Of a stretch of DNA of 64,000 bases, positions 4,388 through 33,218 are shown piece after piece. The notes below the pieces were generated by a model. The model was not told where the DNA came from, made no database searches, and worked only from the letters and a program-made list of their open reading frames with translations. The translations under genes and the position numbers were made by a program. Where the stretch lies: the NCBI GenBank assembly GCA_000004985.1, contig GG738899.1; one strand, 5' to 3'. Position 1 is the stretch's first letter, and every line of letters begins with the position of its first letter. The stretch comes from Naegleria gruberi (taxonomy: Eukaryota).

Positions 4388-6146
4388 ATGATGATGATGA
4401 ATCAAAAGAGAATATCTGCCGTTAGATCATTGATGAAGAATGTTAATGGCAAGAATTCCATCATCATGATGAATAAGTGTTCCAATATGATGTTGATGAA
4501 GAATAATTATCACTCGAGTTTGTATCAATCGATGAAGGTTGTTCATCCGGTTGAGATTGCTGCTACACCAGAGAATAAGGATACTTCACTTCCAACTGCT
4601 GAGGAAATTCAATTTGTTGCTCCTATTGAAGATGGTGGTTTGTCGTCGACTGCTCATGTTTCCTTCTATGATATTGAAGAAGCCTTTGCAAGAATTAGTA
4701 AGTTTTGTATATATTGTTCATCAATTCTCATCATATCATGTAATTTATACATTGTTTATACTTCTTTCCATCATCATGTTGCTAATTTAAATCTTCTTCA
4801 TCATCTTTCATTTATAGAACCACTTTTACCTCCAACCCCACTGCAAGAATCAGCTGTTTTAACACAAGAAATATTCGGACAACAAAAGAACGTTTTGCAT
4901 CCTAGAAAGGTCTTTTTGAAATATGAAAATAAGCACATGACTGGAAGTTTTAAGGAAAGAGGAGCTATTAACAAGTTAGCTGCTTTGGATACAGAACAAA
5001 GAAAGAGAGGTGTTGTTGCCTCATCTGCTGGTAACCAGTAAGTATATTATCTAAATTCATTTTAGTTAAATTTCAATAGTGCTCAAGGTATGTTGAAAAT
5101 GCATTTTGTGGAGTTTTTAACTGTTTTTTAACTGTTTGATCAATATTTGGAATACAGCTGTTGCTTATCATGCTATGAGACTTGGAATTAAGGCTACTAT
5201 TTGTATGCCTGTGAATAGTCCACTTTCTAAAGTGGCCGGAACAAAGAGATATGGAGCTGAAGTAGTATTATTCGGAGAAAGTGTCGATGATGCCTATCAA
5301 GAAGCTTTGAGAATTAAGGAGGCAGAAAATAGAGTTCTCGTCCATCCATTCAACGATGACGCCATTATTGCTGGCCAAGGAACATTAGGTTTGGAACTTT
5401 TGGAACAATCACCATATATTGACACAATCGTGTGTCCAATTGGTGGAGGTGGTCTTATCAGTGGTGTTGCCATTGCTTGTAAGACTGTTAATCCAAAGAT
5501 TAAGGTTTATGGTGTTCAAACTGAAAATGTTCCTTCCATGGTTACTGCCAAAAAGAATAGAAAATCCACAACTGTTCCTTTCCATGCTACCATTGCTGAT
5601 GGTATTGCTGTTAGAAGAATTGGTGATTTGACATTCCCAATTATTGATCAATTTGTCGATGATATTGTTACTGTCACGGAAAGTGAAATTGCTCACGCTG
5701 TTCTCGTCCTTTTGGAAAGAGAAAAGACTCTCGTAGAAGGAGCTGGTGCTACTCCAGTTGCTGCCCTTTTGAGTGGAAAGTTAGAGGAAGTGACAAAGAC
5801 AAGCAGTGGTTCTCATCGTGTCTGTTGTATACTTTCTGGAGGTAATATGGATGTTGGTACTGTTAGAGATATTATCGATAGAGGTTTGGCACAAAGTGGT
5901 CGTTTAGTTCGTTTGAGAACTGTCGTTCCTGACGTTCCAGGTCAATTAGCTAAGGTTTTGACACTTTTGGGAGAACTTAAAGTCAACATTAGAGAAGTTG
6001 ACCACGAAAGAAATTACAATGTTCCTGTTGGTTATACTGGTACTGTTATTACATGCCAAACAAGAGGTTTTGAACACATTGAAAATGTCAAGAATAGTCT
6101 CATTCAACACGGTTTCAGTTTTGAAATGATTCAGTGTCATGATTAA
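4388..6146 (+). CDS. PLP-dependent threonine/serine dehydratase (threonine deaminase-like, with C-terminal ACT-like regulatory domain). Exons ~4388-4697, ~4818-5037, putative 8-nt micro-exon ~5080-5087, ~5158-6146.
   Basis: PLP-lysine motif KHMTGSFKERGAINKL (S-F-K-x-R-G). GGGGLISG glycine-rich loop. Across the proposed micro-exon the conserved SAGNHAQ(G/A)VA motif is restored (SSAGN|HAQ|AVAYHAMRLGIKATICMP). The C-terminal ~80 aa (LVRLRTVVPDVPGQL...VNIREVDHER) resembles the ACT-like regulatory domain of biosynthetic threonine deaminases. The N-terminus MMMMNQKRISAVRSLMK is presequence-like. Intron 1 has donor GTAAGT and acceptor TTTATAG. Confidence 0.75.
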
Positions 6147-6358: not shown

Positions 6359-9300
6359 TTATTTTTCTGTATTGTGATAAATACCATTCCAATCTCTTGG
6401 TGGATGAACAGCGTACTCTCTACATCTTTCTCTCAATGTTCTCGAAGGGCCATCTTCTGGTCGAATCTTTAGACATTCCTCAAAGAATAGTAAAGCTTGA
6501 GCAAAATCTCCAGATGCATACATTTCCAACGCTCTTTCGTATATTTGTCTGAGTCTCATTATTTCATCGTTTGGAGTTGGGAGAGGTCTACTACTCTTTG
6601 TATCTTTTGAGGGTTCTTTAATTGAATTGTTGGTTCTTCTTCCAAGCAACTCATATATAACACAACCAACACTCTTACCCTTCACACTGATTTGGTCAAT
6701 CTTTCTCACCTCCAATTGTTCGGCAACATAAGGTTGGAGGAATGTATCTTCAGACAACAGAATGCTGGTTCCATAAAACTTGTTTGTTCCTTCCAAACGA
6801 GAAGCCAAATTTACAGAATCACCAATAATGGTAAAGTTTAGTCTCCAAATACTTCCAATATTACCAACAACACAGGACCCACTATGTAACCCAATACGAC
6901 ACCTAAACAGTGGCTTTGCTTCCCTTTGCCATTTTCTTCTAAGGTCAGACATTCTTTGTTGACATCTCAAGGCAGCTCTACATCCTCTTAAACCAGAAAT
7001 TGCTGATGTGTCAGGAGCTCCCCAGAAGGCCATTACTATTTCAAAATTTTTGTTACATCCTGAAATCGTTAAACTTACCTGAATCACCAATATACTTATC
7101 CAAAGTTCCATTCTCGTAAATAATTTCTTCTGTCAACACATGAAAATATTCAGAAACATGTTGAATCAACATTTCAGGATCCAATTCTTCACTAATTGTT
7201 GTAAAATTTTCAATATCTGAGAAAAATATTGTCAAGTTACCAACAAGCCTACCACCCAAAGTAATTTCATTACCATTCTTCAACATGTCTCTCAGTAGTT
7301 CATTTGGAACAAACTTTTTAAATGATCGAACAGTTGTTTTCATCTTATCAAAGGCAATAGAAAGTTCATGAATTTCAGTTGTGGTGTTGTAAACTTTTGA
7401 AGTTTTTGGAGCTTCTAAATTTGAGAGAGCCTTACTTTCTCTTGAGAAGAATCTCAATGGTTTGGACACAGCTTGAGAGAATATGCAACTAAAAAGTACA
7501 CCAAAAGCAAGGCACACAAATGCGATACCAATTGTTAGTCCCAACATGAGCATAACATTACTGACAAAGTCACCATCTGGAGCAACTACGACAACAATCC
7601 AATGCATGTTCAAATCGACTGTTCTTTTTACTACTCCATGGGCAACAACATAGTCTTCACCACTAAAGGAAAAGGAATTCAAATGTGGATTATACTCAGC
7701 TGTGGACTTATTCTTATAGCCAGAGTAATCACTTGGTAAGATGTTGAGTAATACGTGTTTCAGTAAAGGATCTGAAACTTCGTGTGCTTCAGCAATTCTG
7801 ATATCGAAAGTGGAACTTTCATCAAAAACTGCTATTGCTGATGAATTCTTGAACCCAAGAACACGCTTATGGAGAACGGGTGCACCGCTATTGCTCTCTC
7901 TAGTGAAAAATTCAACAATAGCTACAAAAGAATTTGGAGAAACATAGAACGATCTAACAAAATCTGACAAGTATTTGATGTTAACATTGATACTGGTCAT
8001 TCCTAGAAAAGTTGAATCATATGGAGAATAAACGTTAGATTGGTAGCAGGTATAGATTCTTTCCTCAATTGACGATCCCTGCCATTGAACATCCATTGGA
8101 ACGAGGGCCTCTTTGTGTTTGAGAGCTAATTTGTAGAACTCTCCTTGAGTTGGGTCCCATTTATCCATTAATTCTGAATCAGTGACAGTTCTCAATTTTC
8201 CATATTTCGAAAAGTAGTAAAACGACTGAAATGTTTCATCATTTGCCTGCTTCATCAGAAAAACTCTTTGCATATTGTCGAATTGCCCCTCATCTTCGTT
8301 TGAAACTGGAAGTACTAGTTCATAACTTTCATCAACATACAAATAATCTGTATTTGGGCAAGTAAAATCCACCAAGAATATCTTTCCTATATATTGATGA
8401 TGGCTTACAGCTAGTAACCTTAAAATATTTACATAATTTTCATAAGAGTAAAAGTTACTAGTTGAAGAATTAGTATTAAGGCCACCCTCATTCATAAAAT
8501 AACTCCTATAGATGGCATGTCTCTGTTGTCTTGTTGCCTCCATACATATCCACAAAAAGTCGGAAACATAAGACTCTGCTCTGAAATATGACTGTGCCAT
8601 TACTTGATTTTTAACATCATTGGAAGCAAGAATTGAAAATCCAATAGAAATTCCTATTAATGAAAGAACTGGTATCACTAACATTACTAGCATCATGGTG
8701 ATCAATAAACATCTGAATGAGCAAATATAAAAATGTGGCCTCAATTCAACAGAAGTTGGTCTCTTCTCCTCTCCGGTAATACTTTGTGGCGTAACTATAG
8801 AATCGTTATCAAAAAGCTTTTTTGTACTAGTTTTAAAGCTTGATGCCAACGACTCTTGCTCTGCCAAATTGTGGAAGGAAATTTCTCGAGAAGGAGCAAC
8901 ATAATAAAGTGAGTTGGAACGAGCAAGTTTTTCTTGAGGTTGAATTTGGAGCATACTATTTCTCCTAGAATTTGGATTGGATGATAACTTAGAATTTGGG
9001 GATTTGGTGGAGGACATTGTGTTTGTACTTTTAACATTTGGAATAAAAACACTGGAAGAAGGTGGAGCTTGTACTTGTTGAACTGGAGTTGAATTTGGTA
9101 TACTAGTGATGGACTCTAAACTTTGTTCATTGTTGGCCGTCTTGGTCATCACATAAGTATTTAAATTATGAACTGTGGTTGGGACAGACTCTTGGTCCGA
9201 CAAATCACGAAAGAAGAATTCCTTCACTGGTGGAGCATAATAGATGGGATTATTGGCGTAAACTGGTGTTCTATCAGGAAGAGAGGGTGGGATTTGCATA

Positions 9301-9422
9301 ATACTATTCCTTCTCGAACTTGGGTTCGATACAGGATATTTAGAAATAAGATTGGGTAGTGATTCATTACTACAAGATTCAATGAGTGGTGTTACTTTGT
9401 TGCTGTGCATTGGATTCGTCAT
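6359..9422 (-). CDS. Receptor-type class III nucleotidyl (adenylyl/guanylyl) cyclase: short S-rich cytoplasmic N-terminus, transmembrane segment 1, ~330-aa extracytoplasmic Cache-like sensor domain, transmembrane segment 2, cyclase catalytic domain, C-terminal TPR-like tail. One intron (~7036-7079) inside the catalytic domain.
   Basis: Track ORFs 7053-9422(-) and 6359-7111(-) join through a 44-nt intron (GTAAGT...GAAATAG) giving ...LDKYIGDS|VMAFWGAPD, matching the class III cyclase consensus K-x-IGD-x-YMAVSG. Downstream motifs RIGLHSGSCVVGNIGS...RLNFTIIGDSVNLASRLEG...YGTSILLSEDTF. Two hydrophobic segments (LLITMMLVMLVIPVLSLIGISIGFSILA and VMLMLGLTIGIAFVCLAFGVLFSCIF) flank a domain with Cache-like features. 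Confidence 0.8.
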
Positions 9423-9732: not shown

Positions 9733-11895
9733 TTACTTTTTACTTGAATTCAAAAATTCTGAATACCATGATCGATTTGGATAGGTTTTCATGTTTTCTC
9801 GAAGTGTTTTGAAGAGATGAAAGTCATCCTTATTCTCTACTCGATAGAGAGAATCCACAAATGCATCCACTGAATCGTAATTAGATACCTCGGGTTTGTC
9901 CTGTTTTTGTCTCAACTCCATTGCTTGACAGTGAGAATGCCACTCCTTCTCATAGAGAGGCAAATTCTTCTGAAGGGCTTCCCTTAATTCCTTTCCTCTC
10001 GATTTGGTCAATAATTTAAAATACAAATCACCTTGGAAGGGAAGTCTAAGATCTGCATAGGTGAGAGTGACAAGGCGTGTTGTCGTATCTGAGGTTTTGT
10101 AAAAGTAGTGAATGGTCAATCCATCAGCACTGATTGGTTCCTTTCCATCTGTTGTTCCATTCACTTCATTAGATACAGATGAATCACTATTCTCGTAGGT
10201 TTTATGATACATTATGAAGCAATCAAGCCCAGCATCATAAATCAAGCTACACAGATAATGGAACACTCTCTGACTGAATCCCAATCCAATTGTGAAAGGA
10301 ACATCTAATGTGGTAAAGGCAAGATGCGCTTCTTTTGAACACCTTGGGGAAATAGGTGGAGAACCCGATAAACAAGAGCAGGATTTTGAGTTTCTCAGAA
10401 TGGTTCTTGGTACTTCATCCTCTGGAACAGTACATTTGAACTGTGTAGTATCAAAGATTCGATTTGAAGAGTTTTCTTTCTGTGCAAGAGGTGATACTTG
10501 TTGGGAACCTGTTGTATCATTGCTCATACTAGTTCTGGTGCCTCTTGGTGATTGAGTTGTTTGGGGTGGATTCAATGCTGAACTTGTTGAACTTGTTGAA
10601 GATGATTGAGGGAATATTGAGGCAGTGGAAGAATTTCCTCCAGAATAGGTGATATTCTTGAAATCCACAACCCAAGGGTCCAACTTTTTACGGACCTCTT
10701 TACTGGACGCATAAATTGCCAGCACGTAATCTCTTGGGTAGGGTAATTGATAGACATACTTGATACACTTGAGTCCTTTCAAATTCTTTCCAATCATGAA
10801 ATTGGTCGAGGAAATGTAGCGAGCTGTTGACATTGGTTTCTCCTTCTCATAGACACAATTCCAATAGGGTGAGTCTTCAATGAGAGCAAAACTATTCGTA
10901 ATGTGATGATCTGACAATGTCTTGTGAATGAAATCCTCAGTCTTGAATCGACAATCTCTTCCCTTGGTTGTGTCCAATGCAATGGCTCTGGTAAATTCCT
11001 CTCCATTCTTTAAGAGAAAGTTTTTCAAAAAGTCACTCCTTGAATATCGTGGAAATTGGTCCAATTTCATGTCAGTGAGTACAGCCAAGTAGACAGTGCT
11101 GAATAGATTCTCAGGCGATAGTAACTCAACCATTGTAATGAAATGATAAGCCTCCTCTGGCCATTGATTGGCTTCATAGACATTTTGTAAAGTTTCCCAA
11201 TTATTTTTCACCTTCTTATTTATGATATTTGGTAAATTCAACCCACCAATAATATACTTCTCCATAATTACAGAAGCCAATGCATAACAAATCTTGATGG
11301 CATTCACATAGGGTTCTGCCACTGATGAGCTAGCAACGACCCCCGAAAAGATGTCATTCACAAAATTCAAACTACGCACAGATTTTGTATCCAATGTTTG
11401 TGGTGTATTGCCACCAGTTTTTCTCCTTCCAAATAGTGAAGTTCCAGTACTATTTCTTGGAGTACTTGTTGTTGAGGATGATGAGGTGGTAAAGGATGAA
11501 TTCGGTAACAATCGGTTGCCAAATCTGAGAAAGTAAGCATTCTTGTACTCTTCAAAATCTCTCAAAAAGTGAACAGTTTCATTACAGAGGGCAATATTGG
11601 TGAGATAGTCATAGAAATGATTTCTTGCAGCTTCCACTTCCATAACTTCAGTAAATTGGACAGCATACTTGGAAATATCAAAAGAACCAGAATTATTATT
11701 GGAAAATGCTGAACAATTATTAGAAAGATGTCCACCGTTAGGAGAGGTTTCATTCAATGAAGAAGAATTTGATGATGAACTTGCCGAGGAACTATTCGAA
11801 TTGTTAGAATTATTGAAGAGGAGTGGAAACAGAGAACGAGACGATCTCTTACTCGGTGTAGAAGGAGAATTGACCATCATGAAGGAGATGACCAA
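9733..11895 (-). CDS. RGS-like domain protein with internal START-like (lipid-binding) domain and long S/T/N-rich linkers. Paralogous to 53301-54779.
   Basis: Single 720-aa minus-strand ORF. N-terminal block VQFTEVMEVEAARNHFYDYLTNIALCNETVHFLRDFEEYKN fits the RGS pattern F..(F/Y)L..E.S.EN..F...E.YK. Central block ...YWNCVYEKEKP...YQLPYPRDYVLAIYASS...WVVDFKN resembles START-domain signatures (W.VV.E...; s.RDFV...). Extensive poly-S/T/N low complexity. Confidence 0.5.
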   Translation of the reverse strand: MVISFMMVNSPSTPSKRSSRSLFPLLFNNSNNSNSSSASSSSNSSSLNETSPNGGHLSNNCSAFSNNNSGSFDISKYAVQFTEVMEVEAARNHFYDYLTNIALCNETVHFLRDFEEYKNAYFLRFGNRLLPNSSFTTSSSSTTSTPRNSTGTSLFGRRKTGGNTPQTLDTKSVRSLNFVNDIFSGVVASSSVAEPYVNAIKICYALASVIMEKYIIGGLNLPNIINKKVKNNWETLQNVYEANQWPEEAYHFITMVELLSPENLFSTVYLAVLTDMKLDQFPRYSRSDFLKNFLLKNGEEFTRAIALDTTKGRDCRFKTEDFIHKTLSDHHITNSFALIEDSPYWNCVYEKEKPMSTARYISSTNFMIGKNLKGLKCIKYVYQLPYPRDYVLAIYASSKEVRKKLDPWVVDFKNITYSGGNSSTASIFPQSSSTSSTSSALNPPQTTQSPRGTRTSMSNDTTGSQQVSPLAQKENSSNRIFDTTQFKCTVPEDEVPRTILRNSKSCSCLSGSPPISPRCSKEAHLAFTTLDVPFTIGLGFSQRVFHYLCSLIYDAGLDCFIMYHKTYENSDSSVSNEVNGTTDGKEPISADGLTIHYFYKTSDTTTRLVTLTYADLRLPFQGDLYFKLLTKSRGKELREALQKNLPLYEKEWHSHCQAMELRQKQDKPEVSNYDSVDAFVDSLYRVENKDDFHLFKTLRENMKTYPNRSWYSEFLNSSKK

Positions 11896-20559: not shown

Positions 20560-23500
20560 ATGGCACTGGTAAGTTTTATATGCGTTTAATGCGTGATTCA
20601 ATTTTGATAGAGAAACATTTCGAATGCAACAATAGTTAAATCAATTGTTGTTGCAGCAGTTGTTTTGGGTACTTTGATAGGTGCCCTAGTGATTACACTC
20701 GCTGTTACTCTAACAATCAAGTCTGATTTGAATGGCCAATTCACAGATTATGTTAAAGGATACAAGAATAGTGATATTGTAGTCCAACCAACAATTTCAA
20801 CAACATCTTCCAGTTCTCCTGCTCAATTAGACATTTCACAACAAGGATTAGAAAAGCCATATCATGGCTCCCTCAGACTAGGTTCAAACAATACCATCAT
20901 CTACCACTCTGAGAAGTATTTCTCAGGTAATGATACTTTTGAATATTATGTTACCTATGGCGAAAGCTCTTCTCTAAAAGTAAAGAACAGAGTATCCATT
21001 CTAGTTATGAATAGAGATCCAAAAGCTGTACCACTCACATTCGAAATACCAAAGAATTCTCATGATAACATCATTGATATCTTTGAAAAGAATGATAAGT
21101 TTGGAATGAAGGTTACTGATGACGATGATGATATTCTCGAGTTGGTTTCAGTATCCACTCCAAAATTGTCTGGCTCTGTTGTCTCCTCCAATAGTAAGCA
21201 AATTATCTACACTCCATGCACTAATTGTATTGGTGTAGATTCTTTTACATATACTGTTACTGATTTCAATTCAACAGTCTCCTCCACAATTACTATCAAC
21301 TTGGTCAATACTCCACCAAATGCTGTTAGAGATGATTTTACCATTAGCAAGAACAAGTTGGCAACTCTCAATGTCCTCTCCAATGATATTGATGAGAATC
21401 TTGACGAGTTGTACATCATCTCTGCTGGAACTGGTGAAGGTTCTATTGGTAGCGTTGTTGTTTCAACAGACAGAAAGTCATTGATCTATTATCCTAAAGC
21501 TGATACTAAGCCATACCTTGACGTTTTTAGTTATGTCATTACAGATGACTTGAATAATCCAAATTCAACCTCTACAGGTTCTATCCATGTTACAGTTACC
21601 AATTCACCACCTAATGCTCCTGAAACCAAACAAGTTTCAGTTTCCAAGAATTCAGCCAACTCTACCATTGATCTAACCTTTACTGATAATGATATTCTTG
21701 ATACTGTGAATGTTGAAATATTATCAACACCAAAGAGAGGTTACTTTTCTTTTGTTCAACAAAAGTATATTGATTCTGTTGATTATTTGGGTCAAATCTA
21801 TGTAGATGTTCTCAAGTTAAGATATCAATTATTGTACTCTCCAGAGAAAGGTGTTTCCTATTCTGAGAGTTTCAATGTAAAGGTAACAGATGGCTACTCA
21901 AGTTTGATTACAAGTATTATTATCAATGTGGTCAACACTCCTCCTATTTCTGTTAATGATACCATTACATGTACAAAGAATAATGAAGTAGTTGTTGACG
22001 TAATCTCCAATGACTATGATGTTGATGGTGATTCTATCAAGTTGTCTACCACCGATTGGGAGCCAAATAGTTTCAATGGTGGAGAAGTTTTCAGAACTGA
22101 TGACAGGTCAATAACATACAAAGCTCCTCAAGGGTTTGTTGGTATTGATACTGTAAGATATTACATTACTGATGGTGAATCAATTTCATATGGATTCTTG
22201 ACTGTCAATGTTCAAAGTGTAAAGCCGATTGCGGTGAATGATGTATTCTTTGTTCCAAAGGGACTCAAGACGTTCTTGAATGTATTGAACAATGACTACA
22301 GTCCAAGTAAGGATGAAATTTTGTTATCCTTTGCTACCATTAGAAGTGTTGAAGAATCCAATGTAGTACGTAGTCTCAGAAATAACGTCTATGGTTACGA
22401 ATACTCTGCCTCAGATGTGGAATATGTCGATACATTCAATTACAAGGTTGTTGATGTTTTTGGATTGACTTCCGACTCTGCAGTAGTAACTGTTAAGGTT
22501 GTAAACACTCCTCCAAAAGCTGTTGATGATGTCATTTCAGTTTCTTGGAATAGAGATGCTGTTTTGAATGTTCTCGAAAATGACTATGATGAAAATCCAA
22601 GTGATAATCAATTACTTGTTGTTAAGAGAACTATTCACGGAGAAAATCAAACAGTTCCTACTCCAGTCATCTTTGAATCAGGAAAGAAGTTACTCCTTTC
22701 CCCACCAAATGGCTTCACTGGTACTTTTGAATTTTTCTATGTTATTTCTGATACTTTTGATGAATCTAATGTGGCTAAAGTTACCGTTTCTATTGTAAAT
22801 CACCAACCAATTGCTAATGATGATCATGTTAGTGTTCATTGGAGAGATGGAATTTCTGTTATTAATGTTTTGCAAAATGATAGTGATGAAGATGGTGATA
22901 TCCTATTAATCAAGTCTTTCACTCAACCATCCAAAGGATTTGTGGTCAAGAAAGCACTCCCTGATGGAACTGAAGTATTTGAGTACTCTATTCTTGCTTC
23001 TGTAAAATTTGTCGGTATTGATAGTTTCCAATATGAAATTACAGATAATGGCAAGTCCTCAACAGCCACAGTCTATGTCAATGTTACCAACTTTTCTCCT
23101 GTAGCTAATGAAGATTCCTACAATGTACATTGGAACGCAGAGCAACAAGAGTATGAGATTCTCTCTAATGACTTTGATGGCGATTCTGATCCATTGAAAA
23201 TTGTTCCAAACTCTCTCATAATACCAAGTCAATTCAGAGGTCAAACTGAAATCAATGCTGATGGAACTGCAATCAAATTCAAACCTTCAGTTTCAGGTGT
23301 ATTTACTCTCACTTACAGAATTAGTGACACAGTAAGCCAATCATTGGACACTAAAGTTACTTTTAATGTGACCAACTTGGACAAACCGCTCCTGAGAACA
23401 ATCGAAAAGAACATCCATTGGACTATGAACCAACCAATTTCTATTCCTATCACAACTTTCACAAGAGATTCTGATGGTGATTTGCTTGTCATTTCTTCAG

Positions 23501-26500
23501 AGTTTGTGAAACAACCAACTAATGGTAGTATTGAGAGTGTTAATTATGGAGATGCAAATACAGTACCATCTCTTGTTTATAAGAAGAATCCAGGTTTCTT
23601 TGGTTCTGATATCATTCAAGTTTTATTGACTGATGGTTTAGACTCTGCCATTATTACTATCAAAGTCAATTCTATCAATCAAATTCCTCTTTGTCAAAGC
23701 ACTATAAAGGAATCAGTATTTTGGAAGGATTTACCATACGTTAGAAATAGTTTACTTATTGCAGGTGCACTCGATCAAGATAGCGAAGATATTGTCTATT
23801 TGAAGAGCGTTGCCAACAGCTTTAATGATATTTCTGTTAATGGTGATGAAATAACATTCTCTCCATTGAAGGGATTTGTTGAGGAAAGAAATGCTCAATT
23901 GATATTCTCTGACGGATTGGACATTTGTACAAGTATTTTGAAAATCAAGGTAAATGATTCAAAGCCTCAAGCAACCCCTACTATCAGTATGATTCACTGG
24001 TCTAAATCATCTTCCCTAATTGATGTCTTGTCTACTATTGTAGACGCTGATGGTGATTCATGTGATTTCAGTATCAAGTCACAATCTGACTACTCAATTG
24101 GAAGTGCCAGTATTGAATTGAATGCAAATACTAAATTTGTAAAGTGGACTGTATCTAATGATAAGAACTTAGGAGAATCCACTTTTGATATTGAATTCAC
24201 AGATGGTTATTTAACAGATACAGCAACTTATAGAGTCCAAGTTTACAACAATATTCCAATTGTTCCTCAAAAAACCATTGAAGTCCATTGGTCCAAATAT
24301 TTGAATGGTATCTCTATCAATTTGTTACAAGATATTATTGATAATGACGAACAAGATACTGTTTCAATCCCATTAAATTCTTGGGTAACAAGCAAGGTTG
24401 GAACTATCACAATGACTTCCGACAAGATTGCTCTCTATAAACCAAAGCAATCTTATTTGGGAGATGATGAAATTAATTTCACAGTAACTGATGGTTTGGC
24501 CATTGTCAATGTTACTTACAATATTAAGGTCATTAACAGAAAACCTGTTGCTGTTGATGATAATATTTCAGTTCACTGGAATGATACTAGTGTCGATATT
24601 AATGTTTTAGCCAATGACTATGATCCAGATCAAGAAGATACCATCTACATTGCTGCTTTACTCACAGAACCAAGTTCTGGAAGAGTAGAAAAGATTTCAA
24701 CCACAACTGTAAGATATTACTTACCTGAAGATCACTCTGTTTTGGGTGATTTTACTTTCCGTTACTCAGTCACTGATGGTACTGAGATTGCTGAAGCTAA
24801 TGTTACTGTAGATATTGTAAATAGAGATTATCCAATAGATGCCTCTATTTCAAGATCTATCCATTGGAGAGAAGCTGTTTCTGGACTTGCAATCAACATT
24901 GTTCCTTCCAAGAATGATCAAGATGGTGATTTAATAATTTTAAATATTGTTGAATCAAACAATCCTGGCATATTTAGCATTTCCAATGATGTTAACTTGC
25001 TCGTAAAGAGTGAAGAACCTCTCAAGGGAGACTTTAACGCCTCAGTTTCTATCTTTGATGGTATCTCTGTTGCTAATGCACATATTCAAACCTCAATTTA
25101 CAATCATGCTCCAACATCAAGGGATTTGTATTTCAACTTCCACTGGAGTACAATTAGTAGAGGAGTCTATATTGATCTAGTTCAACGATCAAATGATATT
25201 GACTTGCAAGATAAATCAAAGTTGAATATCAAGCATGCTCAAGTTATTGCTGGACCAGATGCTAATGCCGTAACCATTGTAAACAATACTCTTTACTTCA
25301 AGCCAAGCATTCTTGAAATTGGCAACACAACAATTGAGTTTATTATTAGTGATGGATTTGAAGATTCTGATTTACATACCATGATTATTGAAAGTAGAAG
25401 TGTTGTTGCTCAGAAAGCAGATCAATACTTTGATGCTCATTGGCGTTCGTTTGCTTTTGGTAATATCTATGGTCTCGATGAATCATTCAGTAATGAAGAA
25501 ATGATTACCTTATTGGATGTCATTCAACTTCCTGATCATGGAGGACAAGTATCCATTAGTACTATTAGAAACGTTACTTACTATCCTAAAGAAAACTTTG
25601 TTGGTACTGAAGTTTTTGCTGTTTCCTACACAACAGGCATTACCTCATCAAATATTACTGTTCATGTTAATGTCTATAACAATAATCCACAAGGTGCTCC
25701 AAAAGATTATGAAACTCACTGGAGAAATCCTGTTTTGATGAATATTCTTAATGGTGCCTTTGATGAAGATGAATACGATAGATTCTACTTGTTCCCAGAG
25801 TTGCTTGAAGAGTCAACAACAGGAACTTTGTCACAAATTGCTCCTGATGGTTCTGTAACCTTTACTCCAAATGTTACTTCTGGTTTTATTGGAACAACTA
25901 CCTTCTATTACAGAATCAATGATGGAAATAAGGTCTCTTTACCAACTCCTGTAACAATTACCATCAATAACAATCCACCAACATCACACACTAAAGTATT
26001 GAATATAATGTGGAAGAATTTCCTTGATGGTGTTGATTTTGACATTATTTCAACAAATCCAACAGACACTGATTCTGACTCTTTAGATATTCCATTCTTA
26101 TTTGTAAAGAGTTTCAATCAACCATTGCCTTTTGGAGAAGTTTCTCGTTTATCTTCATCCAGAGTCAAGGTTCAAGGTAGTTCATCGTTCCTAGGCTCAA
26201 CTTCATTCTCTTATGTTTTATCAGATGGTGCCATGAATGGTGATTCTACTGGTATTGTGGCCATTAACGTTTACAATAACAAACCAAACTTGACCCAAGA
26301 TACAATTACCACACACTGGAATGTCGACTTTATTGATATTGATGTTTTGTCCAACGATTTTGATATTGATAATAATCCTCTCTTGATTACAACTCTTAAG
26401 AATTATGCCTCACCTGACTCACAAATCATTTTGAATAATAAGGTGAGATATTATCCAAGAACTTGTTCTTCCTCTTCAGATAAATTTAACTATGTAGTTT

Positions 26501-29500
26501 CTGATGGCATTGAATCATCAGAGAGTGAAGTTAATGTAATCATTCTCAATAACAAACCAATTAGCAAGAATTATAATACCACCCATGTATGGCACAATGC
26601 TATTGGAGGTGTAGTTTTCGATATTGTCTCTGAATCAGTGGATGTCGATGGAGATTCTATCAGTATTGTTAAATTCAGCTCTATTCCTTCAGAACAAGGT
26701 ACATTAGAATTGACCAACAATAATAAGAGTCTAATCTATACTCCAAGACTTGGTTTTATTGGTAGTGTTGAAACAATTTCCTATGTAATTACCGATGGAA
26801 GAGATGAAGCTGTTGGTACTATTGATATTGAAATTACTAATAATTTCCCATCTTTGGGTGTTTCTGCAGTTTCTTCTCATTGGAGAAGTGCATTGGAAGG
26901 AACTTTATTCGATTTGAGCTCGAAGTTTATTGATACAGATGGCGATAATGTAATCTTGAAGGCTGTCATTCACCAAGCAGCTAAGGGAACTGTATCAATC
27001 ATTGATTCCAAGACAATCAAATATCAAAGCTCATTTTCTTTCAAGGGTAGTGATTCTTTCACTTTACAATTATCAGACGGATACAACCTTGTTACTGTTG
27101 ATTTGGAAATTGATGTTACTAACAATTTACCAACCTTGAGTGATATTTCTATCCAAACTCTTCACAGATTATCTGGAAATGTAATTATTCCATTGATTAA
27201 CAGAACCGATTCGTTGAAACCAAAAGATTTGGATATTCTCGACAATGACAAGCTTACCATTTCTGCTTTCACTCAACCAGGTATTGGAAGTGTTGTTTTT
27301 TCTGATGCTACACAACTTTCATTCACCTTCTCCAATGTTTTGGGTAATCTTTTGGAACAAACCTTCTCTTACACTGTGTCAGATGGATTGGAAAGTGCAT
27401 CTGCATCTATTACCATTCAAATTCTTAACAATCCTCCAGTTTTGGTTGATGCTGCAAAGAGTTTCCACTGGAGATCTATCTATGAAGAAGGTGGTTCAAT
27501 TGCTCTTGATATTTTGAAGGAATCTAATGCTTTAGATGCTGATGGCGACAATTTGTTCGTAAAGAGCTTTACTCAACCAAGTGTTGGTTCTGTATCTTCC
27601 TTGAATACTTCTCATGTCACATTTAGTCCTGTTGCATTTAAGGCATTTACAACAAGCTTCAAGTTTACTGTTTCAGATGGTGCTCAACAAGTTGAGAAAC
27701 AATTTGACATTTCTATTACAAACACCAATCCAAAGGCAGTTGATGACAGCTTGAACAAATTGTGGAGCAACAAGGTGTTCACTTTCTCTCCATTGGTTAA
27801 TGATTATGATGATAATAATGATCAAATCACTATCGTCCCAGAGTTGACTGAAAAAGTTTCAAGATTGCGATCAGCCTCAATTACTGTAAACAGTGACTTG
27901 AAAACTATTACCTATTCTGATACAGGTTCACTCACTACAGGATCTGATTCCTTCTCCTATACTATAACAGATGGTGTAGCAACAAGTTCTGCTATTGTTT
28001 CTATCACTTTTACTAATACCGAACCTTCAGTTGAATCATTTGAAGTTTCTGTCAAGTGGGATCAATCTATTACTTTTGATAATCTCCTTGGTAGATGTAA
28101 AGATCTTGATGGTGATGCATTGTCATTTGCTGGTATTACTCAAGGGATGTTAGGAACTACTCAATTGATTGACTCTCAAATCGGAACTTCTAAATATACA
28201 CCAAATCGTGCCTTGACCTATACCAACAAACCATCGACTGGTAATTGGACAGTTGTTGATACTATCCAATACTCATGCACAGATAGTGTTGTTCAAAAGG
28301 CAGGTACCATTTCAATCACAATTTACAATGAACCACCAAAAGGAAACGATATTTCCATCTCTCAAGTTAGAAATTACAATAATCCTCAAATTTCAATTGA
28401 TGGATATTCAATTTTATCTCAATCTAGTGATTCCAATGGAGATTCTATTACAATTACCAAAGTCAAACTCTATGATAACCAAAATATTGAAACTTCTGTT
28501 GTTTTACAAGCTGACAGTTCCATCAAATTCAAATATGGCAAGTCTTTCATTGGAATTCAAAAATTCTACTATACTATTTCAGATGGACAACTTGAAAACA
28601 CATACACATATTCTGTTGAAATATTGGGAAGCCCATCTTTGTGCGTCGATTATACCATTTCTACATTCAAAGACGCTTTGTCAACAGCATTCGGATCTGA
28701 CTTGAATTCCAAGTTGAATTTGGCATTTGATGGCGAGCCAATCTCTGTAACAGTTTCTGGAACCTCAACCTTGAGCTCTGTTGGTACTATTAGCACTGTT
28801 GATAATACCCTCACATATACTCCAAATAAGAGAAGATCCTGTATTAACAATGCTTGTTATGCCACCTACACAGCAATCAATGCTGCTGGTCAATCAGCCA
28901 CTTGTAAGATTATTGTCAATCAATCTAACCAAGCTCCAAATAATCCAAGCTATACCTACAAGTATTCTGCCAGAAGAGATGGAAACAACTTGATGATCTT
29001 TGATTATCTTGTTGATGCAGCTGTAACCGATCCTGATAGTACAGACAGCGTTTCTATTCAATCAATCTCAAGTCTTGGATCATGTTCTGATAAGGCCACT
29101 ATTTCTGTTAGTAATGGAAAGATTTCATTCACTAGACAAGCCACCTTCCTTGCTTCCACTTGTACATTCAACATTAAATTACAAGATGATGATGAATTAA
29201 CACCTGCTACAAGCATTGCCTCTATTACAGTTAATCCAACTATTTCTCCACCGTTGGCAGTTTCTGATAACATTATGGCCACTTTCAATTCCAACAGAGA
29301 TATTGATGTTTCTGTTTTGCTTCAAAATGATATTGATTTATTGGGAGGTAGCTTTACATTTGATGGTTTATTCTGCCCAGACGCAACTTACTGCAAGAAT
29401 GGTCTTCCAACCTTGTTGAATGCCAACACTGTTAGAATTCCTTTCAAGACTGGAAGTTGTGAAGCTGAAAAGGTTCAATACAGAATCAAGTCAACCCAAG

Positions 29501-32500
29501 ATGGATCTGTATCATATGCCAATATTATTATCAGATATGCTGGTTGTGTTTGCGAAAATATTTTCGACGTTGTTTTCATTGTTGATGGTTCTTATTCTAT
29601 TTCAGATGCCAATTGGGTCAGTTTGAAATCATTCTTCTCCAATATTACCCAAAGCTTGAACGTTGGTCCTTCTGCAACTAGAATTGGTATTGTTCAATAC
29701 AGTTCTGATGCAACTGTTGAATTAGATCTGAATAGTGGAACTTCGTCTAATGCTATTGTCAATCGTATTAGTAATATTGCTCAAAAGAAATCAGCAACTG
29801 CTTCAATTTATGGTATTGATAAGGCTGTTGAATTGATGGTCTCTCAAGGAAGAAGTGATGTTCCAAACAAGCTCTTTATTCACGTAACTGATGGTCAAAG
29901 TAATATGCCTTGCTCATGTGGTGAATGTAAGAATTATTATGGAACATTTGAAGGATGTAACTCTGTCTTATATCCTGGTAAATCGTGTGACTATTGCTCA
30001 TGGAATGATCCTCAAAGTCGTTGTGCACCTTGTTCAGATTACACAGAAAAATGTCAAAGAATTAACAAGTGGAGAAGTGGTAATAATGATAATCCTGAAC
30101 CATCTAAGAATTGGAATTATAGAATGATGGCTATTGGTATTGGATCTGGTGTCAATAATCCGTACGGTCTAGTTCAATTAGAAAAATCAAACTATGACCC
30201 ATCCCTCTTCCATTTATTCGATTGGAATGATTTGAATTATAAGATGATTGTTGATGAATCATGTGCTGCTTCTTATAACATTTATGGTGAAACTGCTCTC
30301 CAAAATACTACTTACGCTGATTCTCAAATTACAGTTCAATATTCTGGTAGAAGTGTTGTCAATCAATCAAATATTGCTAGTACAACATTTACCTATGTCT
30401 TGACAGCACCAACAAGCACAAAGCAAAAGAGTATCAAGAAATTCGTACTTTCCAATTCAATTTCTGATCCAGAATCATATGTTTCATACAACCCAACATT
30501 CCCTGTATTTGTTGGAACTGAATCCTTGACAAGCTTATTTGGATTTGTGTGGGACTCTGTTCCTTCCTCATCACTTGTTCCAATGGGATCATCTAAAACT
30601 GTTACCATTACTGTATGCGGTGATGTTCCTGAAAGTATGGTTTCTTTTGGTGTTGTTAGTGAATCCTTCATTACCTATTCAACAATTAAGGGACCAGCTA
30701 CTTCACTCTGTGTTGATAAGCCAGTTATTGATCCTAATACTCAATGTTTTGCTAAATCTGGAGCTTCATCATGTAGTGGACATGGTTTGTGTGTTCAACC
30801 TGATCTATGTCAATGTAATTCTGGATACACTGGAACTGAGTGTGAAACTCCTATTTGTTTCGATTTGACTGGTAACTTTGCATGCTCTGGTACTTCTAAG
30901 GGTACTTGTACTGGACCTAATACTTGCCAATGTCAAACTGGTTGGACTGGTACTGATTGTTCTATTCCAATTTGTTATGGTCTTGCAGCAAATAATGCTG
31001 GTTCTTGTAGTGGTTCCTCAAAAGGTACATGTATTTCTAAAGACACATGTCAATGCCAAACTGGATGGACTGGATCTGACTGTTCAGTTCCTATTTGTTA
31101 TTCACAGACTGGATCATCTGCCTGCTCAGGACCATCTCAAGGAAGTTGCATTTCTAAAGATACTTGCCAATGTCAAACTGGTTGGACTGGACCTGAATGC
31201 TCAATTCCAATCTGTTATGGATTAGCAGCAAATAATGCTGGTTCTTGTAGTGGTTCATCAAAGGGTACTTGTATTTCTAAGGATACATGCCAATGTCAAG
31301 ATGGTTGGACAGGATCAGATTGCTCAATTCCTATTTGCTTTGGTCGTCCACAAACTGATACATTATCTTGCTCTGGTTCCTCCAAGGGTACTTGTGTTTC
31401 AAAGAGCAGTTGTTCATGTCAAACTGGTTGGACAGGTTTCGATTGTTCCATTCCAATTTGTTATGGTGTGAATAGTACATCTACATCTGTTTGTGGTGGC
31501 TCCTCAAGAGGTTCCTGTACATCTAAGGATACCTGTCAATGCCAAACTGGATGGACTGGTTCTGATTGTACCGCTCCTGTCTGTTATGGAGCTTCTGGCA
31601 GTAGTGCTTGTGGTGGATCCACTAAGGGAACATGTACTGCACCTAATTCTTGCTCCTGTAAGACTGGTTGGACTGGTTCTGATTGTACAACTCCAATTTG
31701 TTTCTCAAATACTGGAACATCTGCTTGTGGTGGTTCCTCTAAGGGAACATGTACTGGTCCAGACACATGCCAATGCCAAACTGGTTGGACAGGATCAGAT
31801 TGCACAACCCCAATTTGTTATTCACAAACAGGATCTTCAGCTTGTGGTGGTTCAACTAAAGGTACTTGTACAGCTCCAAATACTTGTTCATGTCAATCAG
31901 GATGGTCTGGAAGTGACTGTACAACTCCTGTATGTCCAGGAAATTGTAATGGTAGAGGTTCATGTTCTGCACCAAATTCATGCAGTTGTAATAGTGGATG
32001 GACTGGTTCTGATTGTTCCATTCCTATCTGTTATTCACAAACAGGATCTTCAGCTTGTGGTGGTTCAACTAAGGGTACTTGTACAGCTCCAAACTCTTGC
32101 TCCTGTAATTCTGGTTGGTCTGGTTCTGATTGTACAACTCCAATTTGTTCAGGTGGTTGTGGTAATGGCGTTTGTAGTTCACCTGGTTCTTGTTCCTGTA
32201 ATTCTGGTTGGAGTGGTGCCACTTGTACAACTCCNNNNNNNNNNNNNNNNNNNNNNNNNNNNNNNNNNNNNNNNNNNNNNNNNNCAGTGGATGGAGTGGA
32301 TCTGATTGTAGTGTTCCAATTTGTTCAAGTGGTTGTGGAAATGGATATGCCAGTTCACCTGGTTCTTGTTCCTGTAATTCAGGTTGGAGTGGTGCTACTT
32401 GTACAACTCCTGTTTGCTCTGGTGGTTGTGGTAATGGTTATTGTAGCTCACCAGGATCCTGCTCATGTAATTCTGGATGGTCTGGTGCCTCTTGTACTAC

Positions 32501-33218
32501 TCCTGTGTGTTCAGGTGGTTGTGGAAATGGTTATTGTAGCTCACCAGGTACTTGTTCCTGTAATTCTGGATGGTCTGGCACAACATGTTCAACACCTGTC
32601 TGCTCTGGTGGCTGTGGTAATGGTTTTTGCAGTGCTCCTGGAAAATGTACTTGTAATTCTGGATGGTCTGGCACAACTTGCACAACTCCAGTTTGTTCAA
32701 GTGGTTGTGGTAATGGCGTTTGTAGTTCACCTGGTTCTTGTTCCTGTAATTCAGGTTGGAGTGGTGCTACTTGTACAACTCCTGTTTGTTCAACATGTAA
32801 TGGTAGAGGTTCATGTGTTGGTCCAGAAAGTTGTTCATGTAACAGTGGATGGTCTGGAAATCTCTGTCAAACACCTGTCTGCTCAACCTGCAATGGACGT
32901 GGTACTTGTGTTGGTCCAGAAAGCTGTTCTTGCAGTAGTGGATGGACTGGAAACTTGTGTCAAACACCTTCATGCACCAATAATTGTAATGGACACGGAA
33001 CCTGCACTGGGCCAAATACCTGTTCCTGTAATTCTGGTTGGAGTGGAGCTGCCTGTGAAACTTGTAGTAATTGTTGTTATGGTATTCCAGCTTCTGATCC
33101 AAGTGTTTGTTCCTGGGGTCAAGGTAGATGTGTGAGTGGTGCTTGTGTCTGTATTGGTCCTTACTATTGTGGTGCACAATGTCAACAATGTGGTTGTAAC
33201 AAATATATGTGTCCTTAA
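20560..33218 (+). CDS. Giant adhesin-like type II membrane protein (>4,500 aa): 3-codon first exon (20560-20568), 42-nt intron (20569-20610), N-terminal signal-anchor transmembrane segment, ~28 tandem ~100-aa cadherin/VCBS-like repeats, Cys-rich linker, VWA domain, then at least 22 tenascin-type EGF-like repeats. The CDS is interrupted by a 51-N assembly gap (~32234-32284) inside the EGF array. Stop at 33216-33218.
   Basis: ATG GCA CTG|GTAAGT...GATAG|AGA joins in frame to track ORF 20665-33135, giving MALRNISNATIVKSIVVAAVVLGTLIGALVITLAVTLTIKS (hydrophobic anchor). Repeats carry the recurring signature V(N/Y)(N/T)xPxAxxDxxxVxWNxxxxxIxVLxNDxDxDGD, about every 100 aa from ~20980 to ~29300. VWA/MIDAS-like DVVFIVDGSYSIS...RIGIVQYSSDATVELDLN at ~29560-30200. 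EGF modules C.G.G.C.....C.C..GW(T/S)G.DC..P(I/V)C recur every ~31 aa from ~30760. Track ORF 32208-33218 continues the same EGF repeats after the gap in the correct frame and ends ...CQQCGCNKYMCP*. Confidence 0.8.
20980..29300 (+). repeat. Coding tandem array of ~28 divergent ~300-nt (100-aa) cadherin/VCBS-like repeat units within the giant gene.
   Basis: Periodic protein motif (VNTPPxAVxDxISVxWNxxAxLNVLxNDYDxDxD and variants such as IHW/THW/FHW + ...ND.D.DGD) counted about 27-29 times in the translation of 20665-33135. Confidence 0.7.
30760..33120 (+). repeat. Coding tandem array of ~93-nt EGF-like repeat units, highly similar at the nucleotide level, containing the assembly gap. The true copy number is unknown.
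   Basis: Recurring ...tgt caa tgt caa act ggt tgg act gg(a/t) tct gat tg(t/c) tc(a/c) att cc(a/t) att tgt tat... units. A run of 51 N at ~32234-32284 lies in the middle of the array. Alternate reading frames stay open across the array (track ORFs 30878-32305 +), typical of a low-complexity repeat. Confidence 0.75.
32234..32284. other. Assembly gap (51 N) inside the EGF-repeat array of the giant gene.
   Basis: Literal run of n in the sequence. Flanking sequence on both sides is the same EGF repeat unit. Confidence 0.95.

Follow-up and report, generated by a model that had tools for sequence, protein, structure and literature searches.

Receptors in which two transmembrane segments (TM1 and TM2) frame an extracytoplasmic double-Cache sensor of the dCache_1 type, followed by a HAMP domain and a class IIIb cyclase, are found in Syntrophales, Spirochaetota, Omnitrophota, Candidatus Finniella, Legionella drozanskii, Chlamydiales and other bacteria. 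In Upadhyay et al. (2016; PMC4822843), the Cache proteins of Naegleria are of one kind only, a "bacterial-type adenylate cyclase" attributed to horizontal transfer, and a table there gives two Naegleria gruberi proteins, D2VLR9 (894 amino acids, aa) and D2V3A4 (745 aa), as dCache_1 plus Guanylate_cyc. The pangenome of the genus is credited with at least 81 cyclases (PMC9928731); almost none of the Naegleria cyclases has a known input. Here we describe a gene on the minus strand of a 64,000-nucleotide (nt) stretch of N. gruberi contig GG738899.1 (assembly GCA_000004985.1; the window), between positions 6359 and 9422. The gene very probably encodes a bacterial-type, homodimeric, two-pass transmembrane receptor adenylate cyclase with a dCache ectodomain as its input. 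The public record of the product (XP_002672261.1 / D2VUI4 / NAEGRDRAFT_72673) reads "predicted protein" only.

The bacterial proteins of this type (the 80 loci L001-L080) are colinear with the Naegleria protein from TM1 to the last residue and share with it an FKKFVPxE linker, a Lys/Thr pair in the catalytic domain and a tail ending in ERC...PP..W.G.....K. In contrast to them, the Naegleria protein has a 230-aa N-terminal tail and its gene an intron, the ectodomain is without the YxxxxRxWY...Y...D motif that about half of them have, and it falls below Pfam detection. D2VLR9 and D2V3A4, from the same organism, likewise join a Cache ectodomain to a class III cyclase; their ectodomains are detected by Pfam dCache_1 (E ~1e-7), whereas that of D2VUI4 (1002 aa) is not. 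The latter was found neither among the listed entries of the PMC4822843 table nor in a literature search, which is consistent with Pfam missing its ectodomain. The architecture of D2VUI4, and the mechanism proposed below, are those of the bacterial dCache-HAMP-cyclases, a kind already described in Naegleria in 2016; D2VUI4 is a new, divergent member among the Naegleria Cache cyclases and reveals no new signalling principle.

More distant systems share parts of this layout. Pseudomonas aeruginosa CyaB (3r5g) and Spirulina CyaC (1wc0/1wc1) have catalytic and substrate-specifying residues identical to those of the Naegleria protein but differ from it in their sensor parts, that of CyaB being a MASE2 membrane domain. 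The dCache ligand-binding domains of chemoreceptors (PctD 7prq, PacA 7psg, McpX 6d8v, Tlp3 4xmq, McpH 8bmv, PctA) show 9-16% identity to the Naegleria ectodomain; ligand contacts are not conserved, and the output is methyl-accepting signalling instead of a cyclase. Dictyostelium ACG and the trypanosomatid receptor adenylate cyclases are, like D2VUI4, membrane-anchored class III cyclases of protists with a large extracellular domain.

Before splicing, the gene appears as two minus-strand open reading frames (ORFs), one of 789 aa (9422-7053) that stops at a TAA inside the intron (7053) and one of 250 aa (7111-6359) in another frame. Removal of 43 nt (7078 to 7036: GTAAGTTTAACGATTTCAGGATGTAACAAAAATTTTGAAATAG) at the junction GAT AAG TAT ATT GGT GAT TCA G/GTAAGT...AAATAG/TA ATG GCC TTC TGG GGA GCT CCT yields an in-frame coding sequence of 3021 nt for 1006 aa and restores the class III cyclase motif KYIGDSVMAFWGAP. 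The intron lies right behind the metal-binding Asp (K776-Y-I-G-D780-S781 / V782-M-A-F-W-G-A-P). A first-pass annotation, made from the sequence alone, had thus correctly seen an intron splitting the catalytic KxIGD/xxMAxxG motif, while its length, put at 44 nt, was one nucleotide too long. From residue 5 on, the product is 100% identical to the public model, which has 1002 aa as it starts at the second ATG (9410) and uses the same junction. We accept the splice since the public model shares it and since the K-x-IGD motif is unbroken in the orthologues from Naegleria lovaniensis, Willaertia magna and a metagenome. ORFs of 789 and 250 aa in DNA with 36% G+C (GC), together with a Pfam cyclase match at E 7e-20, are far beyond chance. 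The ORFs, the spliced coding sequence and the public model all agree with the position first proposed, and the locus is confirmed as a real N. gruberi gene. A tblastn search of the window gave no second copy.

The protein comprises, in this order, a low-complexity tail of about 230 aa, TM1, an ectodomain of about 355 aa, TM2, HAMP, a short linker, the class IIIb cyclase and a TPR-like tail. Only two hydrophobic spans (residues ~236-266 and ~622-648) occur in the whole protein. Lys and Arg residues flank TM1 toward the tail and TM2 toward HAMP, a distribution in keeping with an N-in/C-in orientation that places residues 267-621 outside. Hydropathy and Pfam therefore bear out the tail - TM - ectodomain - TM - class III cyclase layout of the first-pass annotation; the ectodomain itself stands too, its size being about 355 aa and not about 330. 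To that layout we add a HAMP domain, which lies between TM2 and the cyclase, and the conserved TPR-like tail.

The HAMP assignment comes from a profile of the segment made from 4 heterolobosean and 22 bacterial sequences, which matches the HAMP structures of Af1503 over the whole domain (E 7e-7). Taken one by one, 11 of these 26 sequences are recognised by Pfam HAMP, and the full-length N. lovaniensis orthologue gives a weak match. Judged by this family profile, the two-helix unit of about 50 aa directly after TM2 can be placed in HAMP (PF00672). By position, the linker that follows is presumably the cyclase transducer element of class IIIa/b cyclases; its FKKFVP[NST]E motif is kept in hundreds of bacterial homologues.

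The ectodomain, formed by a long stalk helix and by membrane-distal and membrane-proximal PAS-like modules, is of the dCache_1 type, divergent and missed by profile libraries. By direct sequence searches it looks lineage-specific. HMMER with an ectodomain profile against 1.84 billion representative proteins retrieved only two clusters, both heterolobosean, and a profile search of the PDB with a 3-sequence ectodomain alignment returned nothing at E up to 10; the sole hint in Pfam scans up to E 10 was a match of the Willaertia ectodomain to dCache_1 (13.5 bits, E 0.053). A hidden Markov model (HMM) of the four heterolobosean ectodomains matches bacterial ectodomains colinearly within the set of 80, the best example being L. 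drozanskii (L064; HMM 209-353 versus residues 216-340, E 5e-8). When the 4-sequence profile was aligned by hhalign with that of 46 bacterial dCache_1 ectodomains, the probability was 98.6% (E 5.6e-16, 284 columns, end to end), versus 0.3% and 0.1% for control profiles built from two further classes of ectodomain in this set of cyclases. Pfam detects dCache_1 in every one of the 46 long bacterial ectodomains, whose identity to the Naegleria ectodomain is only 9-17%. This profile-profile relation shows dCache_1 homology across the whole ectodomain.

Structure prediction gave a similar picture. With three sequences, the AlphaFold2 model of the ectodomain had a mean predicted local distance difference test score (pLDDT) of 41 and no significant Foldseek match (best E 0.02); with the fourth, pLDDT rose to 70.3 and the predicted template modelling score was 0.73. 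In the latter model, two alpha/beta modules come after an N-terminal helix of 43 residues, and the structural matches are double-Cache ligand-binding domains only. As modelled, a long helix and two tandem PAS-like modules lie between the two TMs. The hhalign comparison, the colinear HMM matches and the model support the "Cache-like" ectodomain first proposed, and the gap between dCache and control profiles upholds a sensor fold. The best match being neither a CHASE profile nor a CHASE structure, a CHASE reading was rejected; two other homologue searches had given mostly CHASE2- or TPR-linked cyclases that matched in the catalytic domain only. All four family members have two invariant ectodomain cysteines, which could form a disulfide: C293, situated in the stalk helix (8544-8546, minus strand), and C459, in a strand of the distal module (8046-8048, minus strand).

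The cyclase is the only above-threshold Pfam domain in the full protein (PF00211, residues 728-903, 71.8 bits with a cut-off of 21.9, E 6.9e-20). Its best solved relatives are CyaB (3r5g, E 4.9e-31) and CyaC (1wc1, E 1.2e-21). Alignment with these two structures identifies Asp736 (FFSDI) and Asp780 (IGD) as the metal-binding residues and Asn857 and Arg861 (VNLASRLE) as the transition-state residues, while Lys776 (TLDKYIGD) and Thr850 (LNFTIIGD), aligned to DKFVGD and DFTAIG of CyaC, occupy the substrate-specifying positions. All six residues are invariant in the three named orthologues. Class III chains that carry all six function as homodimers, in which there are two active sites, and the Lys/Thr pair specifies ATP; guanylate cyclases have Glu and Cys, or similar residues, at these positions. 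With both Asp residues present and the hexad complete, the protein is not a pseudo-cyclase, and this possibility, which the first-pass annotation had flagged, was discarded. The same annotation had considered the choice between cAMP and cGMP undecidable by eye. It resolves to ATP on alignment: in place of Glu/Cys there is Lys776/Thr850, the pair of class IIIb adenylate cyclases, and by these residues the enzyme is a predicted class IIIb adenylate cyclase that probably makes cAMP. A guanylate or dual-specificity cyclase with cGMP as output is very improbable: PF00211 spans both activities and guanylate cyclases do occur among the PDB matches, but with weaker E values (1e-14 to 1e-5), and the top matches, CyaB and CyaC, carry the very pair found here.

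By analogy with these systems, the extracellular double-Cache domain would take the input and TM2 would pass a conformational change on to the HAMP four-helix bundle. The bundle and the helical linker would in turn determine how two class IIIb catalytic domains are placed relative to each other; where these meet, at the dimer interface, there would be two symmetric active sites converting ATP to cAMP. Dimerisation, signalling direction and cAMP as product are all presumed on this basis.

Several observations weigh against D2VUI4 being a dCache-gated cyclase of this kind. On the N. gruberi sequence alone, Pfam HAMP stays below threshold, and Pfam dCache_1 (PF02743, gathering threshold 45 bits) has no match in the ectodomains of N. 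gruberi, N. lovaniensis and the metagenomic orthologue (L081). The ectodomain model was built on only 4 sequences, and the first half of its distal module (model residues 105-160) has pLDDT <55, which makes the pocket geometry unreliable. Finally, where the amino-acid-binding motif has Y/R/W/Y/Y/D, N. gruberi has W/G/F/Y/gap/N, and the dCache domain may no longer bind a small molecule.

The motif in question defines the dCache_1AA family and comprises, in PctA numbering, Y121, R126, W128 (Y129), Y144 and D173 (Gumerov et al. 2022, PMC8915833). Across the four heterolobosean sequences the corresponding positions hold W/Y, G/Y/E, F/Y, Y/F, a gap and N. N. gruberi retains a degenerate counterpart of YDPRxRPWY (W420-DPTQGEFY-428), followed later by TSINV. 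N. gruberi accordingly falls outside dCache_1AA, and the other three sequences deviate likewise. With the motif replaced, the canonical amino-acid binding mode is lost, and the signal should not be a canonically bound amino acid; for this reason we use "ligand-gated", as the gene was first described, as a presumption. The complete motif, spaced much as in PctA, is present in about half of the 46 bacterial homologues, for instance as YDPRTRPWY...WTQIY...GVD in L064. Loci with a complete motif include L007, L014, L017, L018, L026, L040-L042, L046, L056, L059, L060, L064, L072, L075, L076 and others; their products are, by this motif, candidate amino-acid-gated adenylate cyclases.

Within the family, the ectodomain is best conserved at residues 421-496, in the second half of the distal module. 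Ligands of dCache domains normally bind in the second half of the distal module, and the conservation of this stretch speaks for a remodelled pocket that is still under constraint. This bears on the idea that the architecture is as proposed but that the dCache domain has no specific small-molecule ligand and acts as a physical sensor of osmolarity, ionic strength, membrane state or turgor. The contacts to the carboxyl and amino groups (R126, W128, Y144, D173) are indeed replaced in all four heterolobosean sequences. Moreover, dCache_1 has been assigned to the yeast osmosensor Sln1 (Upadhyay et al. 2016, PMC4822843), and the Dictyostelium ACG cyclase is reported to sense osmolarity directly (cited in PMC9928731). 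However, many dCache_1 domains without the amino-acid motif bind purines, amines or organic acids, and such domains are among the top structural matches; conservation, furthermore, peaks at the usual ligand site. We consider a purely physical sensor unlikely. Equally unlikely is a more elaborate scenario, in which the heterolobosean ancestor would have rebuilt an amino-acid-type pocket after the transfer discussed below, obtaining a new lineage-specific ligand or physical input that feeds cAMP into a life-cycle decision, with kinase feedback through the RRNS-bearing N-terminal tail. If true, the decision might be, for example, encystment or the amoeba-to-flagellate switch. Under the preferred reading as a dCache-gated receptor cyclase, D2VUI4 has a defined sensor - HAMP - class IIIb layout of bacterial ancestry and can be tested directly, the ectodomain for ligands and the catalytic part for activity. 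The case also illustrates how divergent Cache domains of eukaryotes escape profile libraries, so that the published count of Naegleria Cache proteins is probably an underestimate.

Orthologues were found in N. lovaniensis (890 aa, 59% identity), in W. magna (828 aa, 45% identity) and in the metagenomic locus L081 (495-2976). In L081 a prokaryotic gene caller had split the gene; removal of a 37-nt GTAAGT...TAG intron just before TM2 yields 814 aa with the N. gruberi layout. The ectodomain, both TMs, the juxtamembrane segment, the cyclase and the C-terminal tail are conserved across the orthologues. The N. lovaniensis gene (L082, 6001-8951) has five annotated introns, two of them without a clean GT at the annotated start, and none at the N. 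gruberi position. Intron positions differ completely among the orthologues, N. gruberi having one, N. lovaniensis five and L081 one; no position being shared, gain or loss of introns must postdate the establishment of the gene.

The HAMP-cyclase part (residues 649-915) has 410 confirmed bacterial relatives, and the best 80 of these are 40-49% identical to it over residues 651-915, essentially all 265 residues. Most of the bacterial loci encode proteins of about 700 aa with two TMs, an ectodomain of 300-360 aa and the same HAMP segment and cyclase; those examined in full have the C-terminal tail too. All seven full-length bacterial homologues scanned contain Pfam dCache_1 and Guanylate_cyc, with HAMP significant in one and a weak TPR match in four. 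Many of the closest homologues are from amoeba-associated bacteria (Ca. Finniella inopinata, Ca. Odyssella, L. drozanskii, Chlamydiales; loci L006, L012, L016, L019, L023, L059, L064, L069 and L076). Genes may have been exchanged within the amoeba niche; in the neighbour-joining tree, however, these bacteria are not sister to the Naegleria clade.

The tree was computed from 340 columns of the region from HAMP to the C-terminus in 82 sequences (78 bacterial and 4 heterolobosean). In 99 of 100 bootstraps the four heterolobosean sequences form one clade, whose neighbours are Syntrophales, Omnitrophota, Actinomycetota and Proteobacteria MAG (metagenome-assembled genome) sequences, with no stable sister. 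As a distance tree with a biased bacterial sample and an arbitrary root, it leaves donor and direction to be read from taxon counts only. The presence of 4 eukaryotic as opposed to hundreds of bacterial sequences favours one transfer from bacterium to heterolobosean, and on these counts a single horizontal transfer from a bacterium before the Naegleria/Willaertia split appears most likely. After the transfer the gene would have gained spliceosomal introns and the long cytoplasmic tail bearing RRNS sites, and would have lost the amino-acid-binding motif, though about half of the bacterial relatives keep it.

The 40-49% identity of the HAMP-cyclase part to bacterial proteins, several from amoeba-associated bacteria, could also be taken to mean that the region is bacterial contamination of the assembly or a recent non-functional insertion. 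This explanation has practically no chance of being correct. The reading frame needs a 43-nt GT...AG intron; the GC content of the gene (36%) is that of the window as a whole (33-40% across its length); and the 230-aa low-complexity tail is of eukaryote style. Eukaryotic genes lie on both flanks (a PALP/ACT gene with an intron, BTB-BACK-TLDc, FMO and protein kinase genes). Three other heterolobosean assemblies contain orthologues with at most 59% identity and different introns, and the catalytic residues are all kept. Contamination was rejected on the intron, GC content, flanking genes, tail and orthologues.

Both ends of the protein deserve a separate mention. Residues 1-230 have no bacterial counterpart, the bacterial homologues starting 10-25 aa ahead of TM1, and are not conserved among orthologues. 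Within them a stretch of about 50 aa occurs twice (residues 32-83 versus 147-194; 40% identity, E 2e-11, BLASTP), each copy with an RRNS site, which we take to be a basophilic-kinase (PKA-type) consensus. These sites would suggest feedback phosphorylation. In the C-terminal tail, residues 947-976 match Pfam TPR_2 weakly (E 1.3e-3, under the cut-off). The tail is present in the Willaertia and L081 orthologues, the annotated N. lovaniensis model stopping before its last part, and in bacterial homologues such as L001, L006 and L040. A signature ERC-x6-8-PP-x2-W-x-G-x5-6-K is found in Naegleria and in the bacterial loci L001, L006, L040 and L075. The ends of the tail read ...ERCRLYLENPPPFDWSGIYHIDSK in the Syntrophales protein L001, ...SRCEAFKITPPPADWDGVYHMKSK in Ca. 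Finniella L006 and ...RERCREYAVHPPRDWNGIYHNTEK in N. gruberi.

Table 1. Coordinates of the receptor cyclase gene and of the segments of its product in the window.
Feature	Position	Strand	Remarks
Whole receptor cyclase gene, first in-frame ATG to stop	6359..9422	-	2 exons, 1006 aa
Exon 1	9422-7079	-	
Spliceosomal intron, 43 nt, GTAAGT...TAG, phase 1	7036..7078	-	within KYIGDS/VMAFWGAP motif
Exon 2, including stop codon	7035-6359	-	
Cytoplasmic N-terminal tail, residues 1-230	8733..9422	-	Ser/Asn/Pro-rich; orthologue alignment
TM1, residues ~236-266	8625..8717	-	Kyte-Doolittle 19-residue window >2.0; kept in orthologues
Double-Cache (dCache_1-like) extracytoplasmic sensor, residues 267-621	7560..8624	-	
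TM2, residues ~622-648	7479..7559	-	hydropathy and orthologue alignment
HAMP, residues ~649-700 (SKPL...EIHELSIAFDKMK...)	7323..7478	-	family profile match to Af1503
Helical linker from HAMP to cyclase, residues 701-727 (FKKFVPNELLRDMLKNGNEITLGG)	7242..7322	-	conserved FKKFVP[NST]E
Cyclase part 1, residues 728-781 and first base of codon 782	7079..7241	-	D736, K776, D780
Cyclase part 2, residues 782-915	6635..7035	-	T850, N857, R861
C-terminal TPR-like tail, residues 941-1006, ending ...ERCREYAVHPPRDWNGIYHNTEK	6362..6559	-	common to bacterial homologues

As to the surroundings of the gene, the PALP plus ACT gene (threonine-dehydratase-like) consists of ORFs 4388-5041 and 5136-6146 on the plus strand, convergent on the 3' end of the cyclase gene; the gap of about 94 nt between the two is probably an intron. 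Directly upstream of the cyclase gene lies a Ser-rich ORF of 720 aa (9733-11895, minus strand), which has no Pfam match at E <= 1e-4. Further away, an uninterrupted ORF of 4156 aa (20665-33135, plus strand) contains 11 Big_9 (bacterial Ig) repeats, bacterial cadherin-like repeats, VWA and many teneurin-type EGF repeats; its domain content suggests a giant surface or adhesion protein in which repeats of bacterial and of eukaryotic type are combined.

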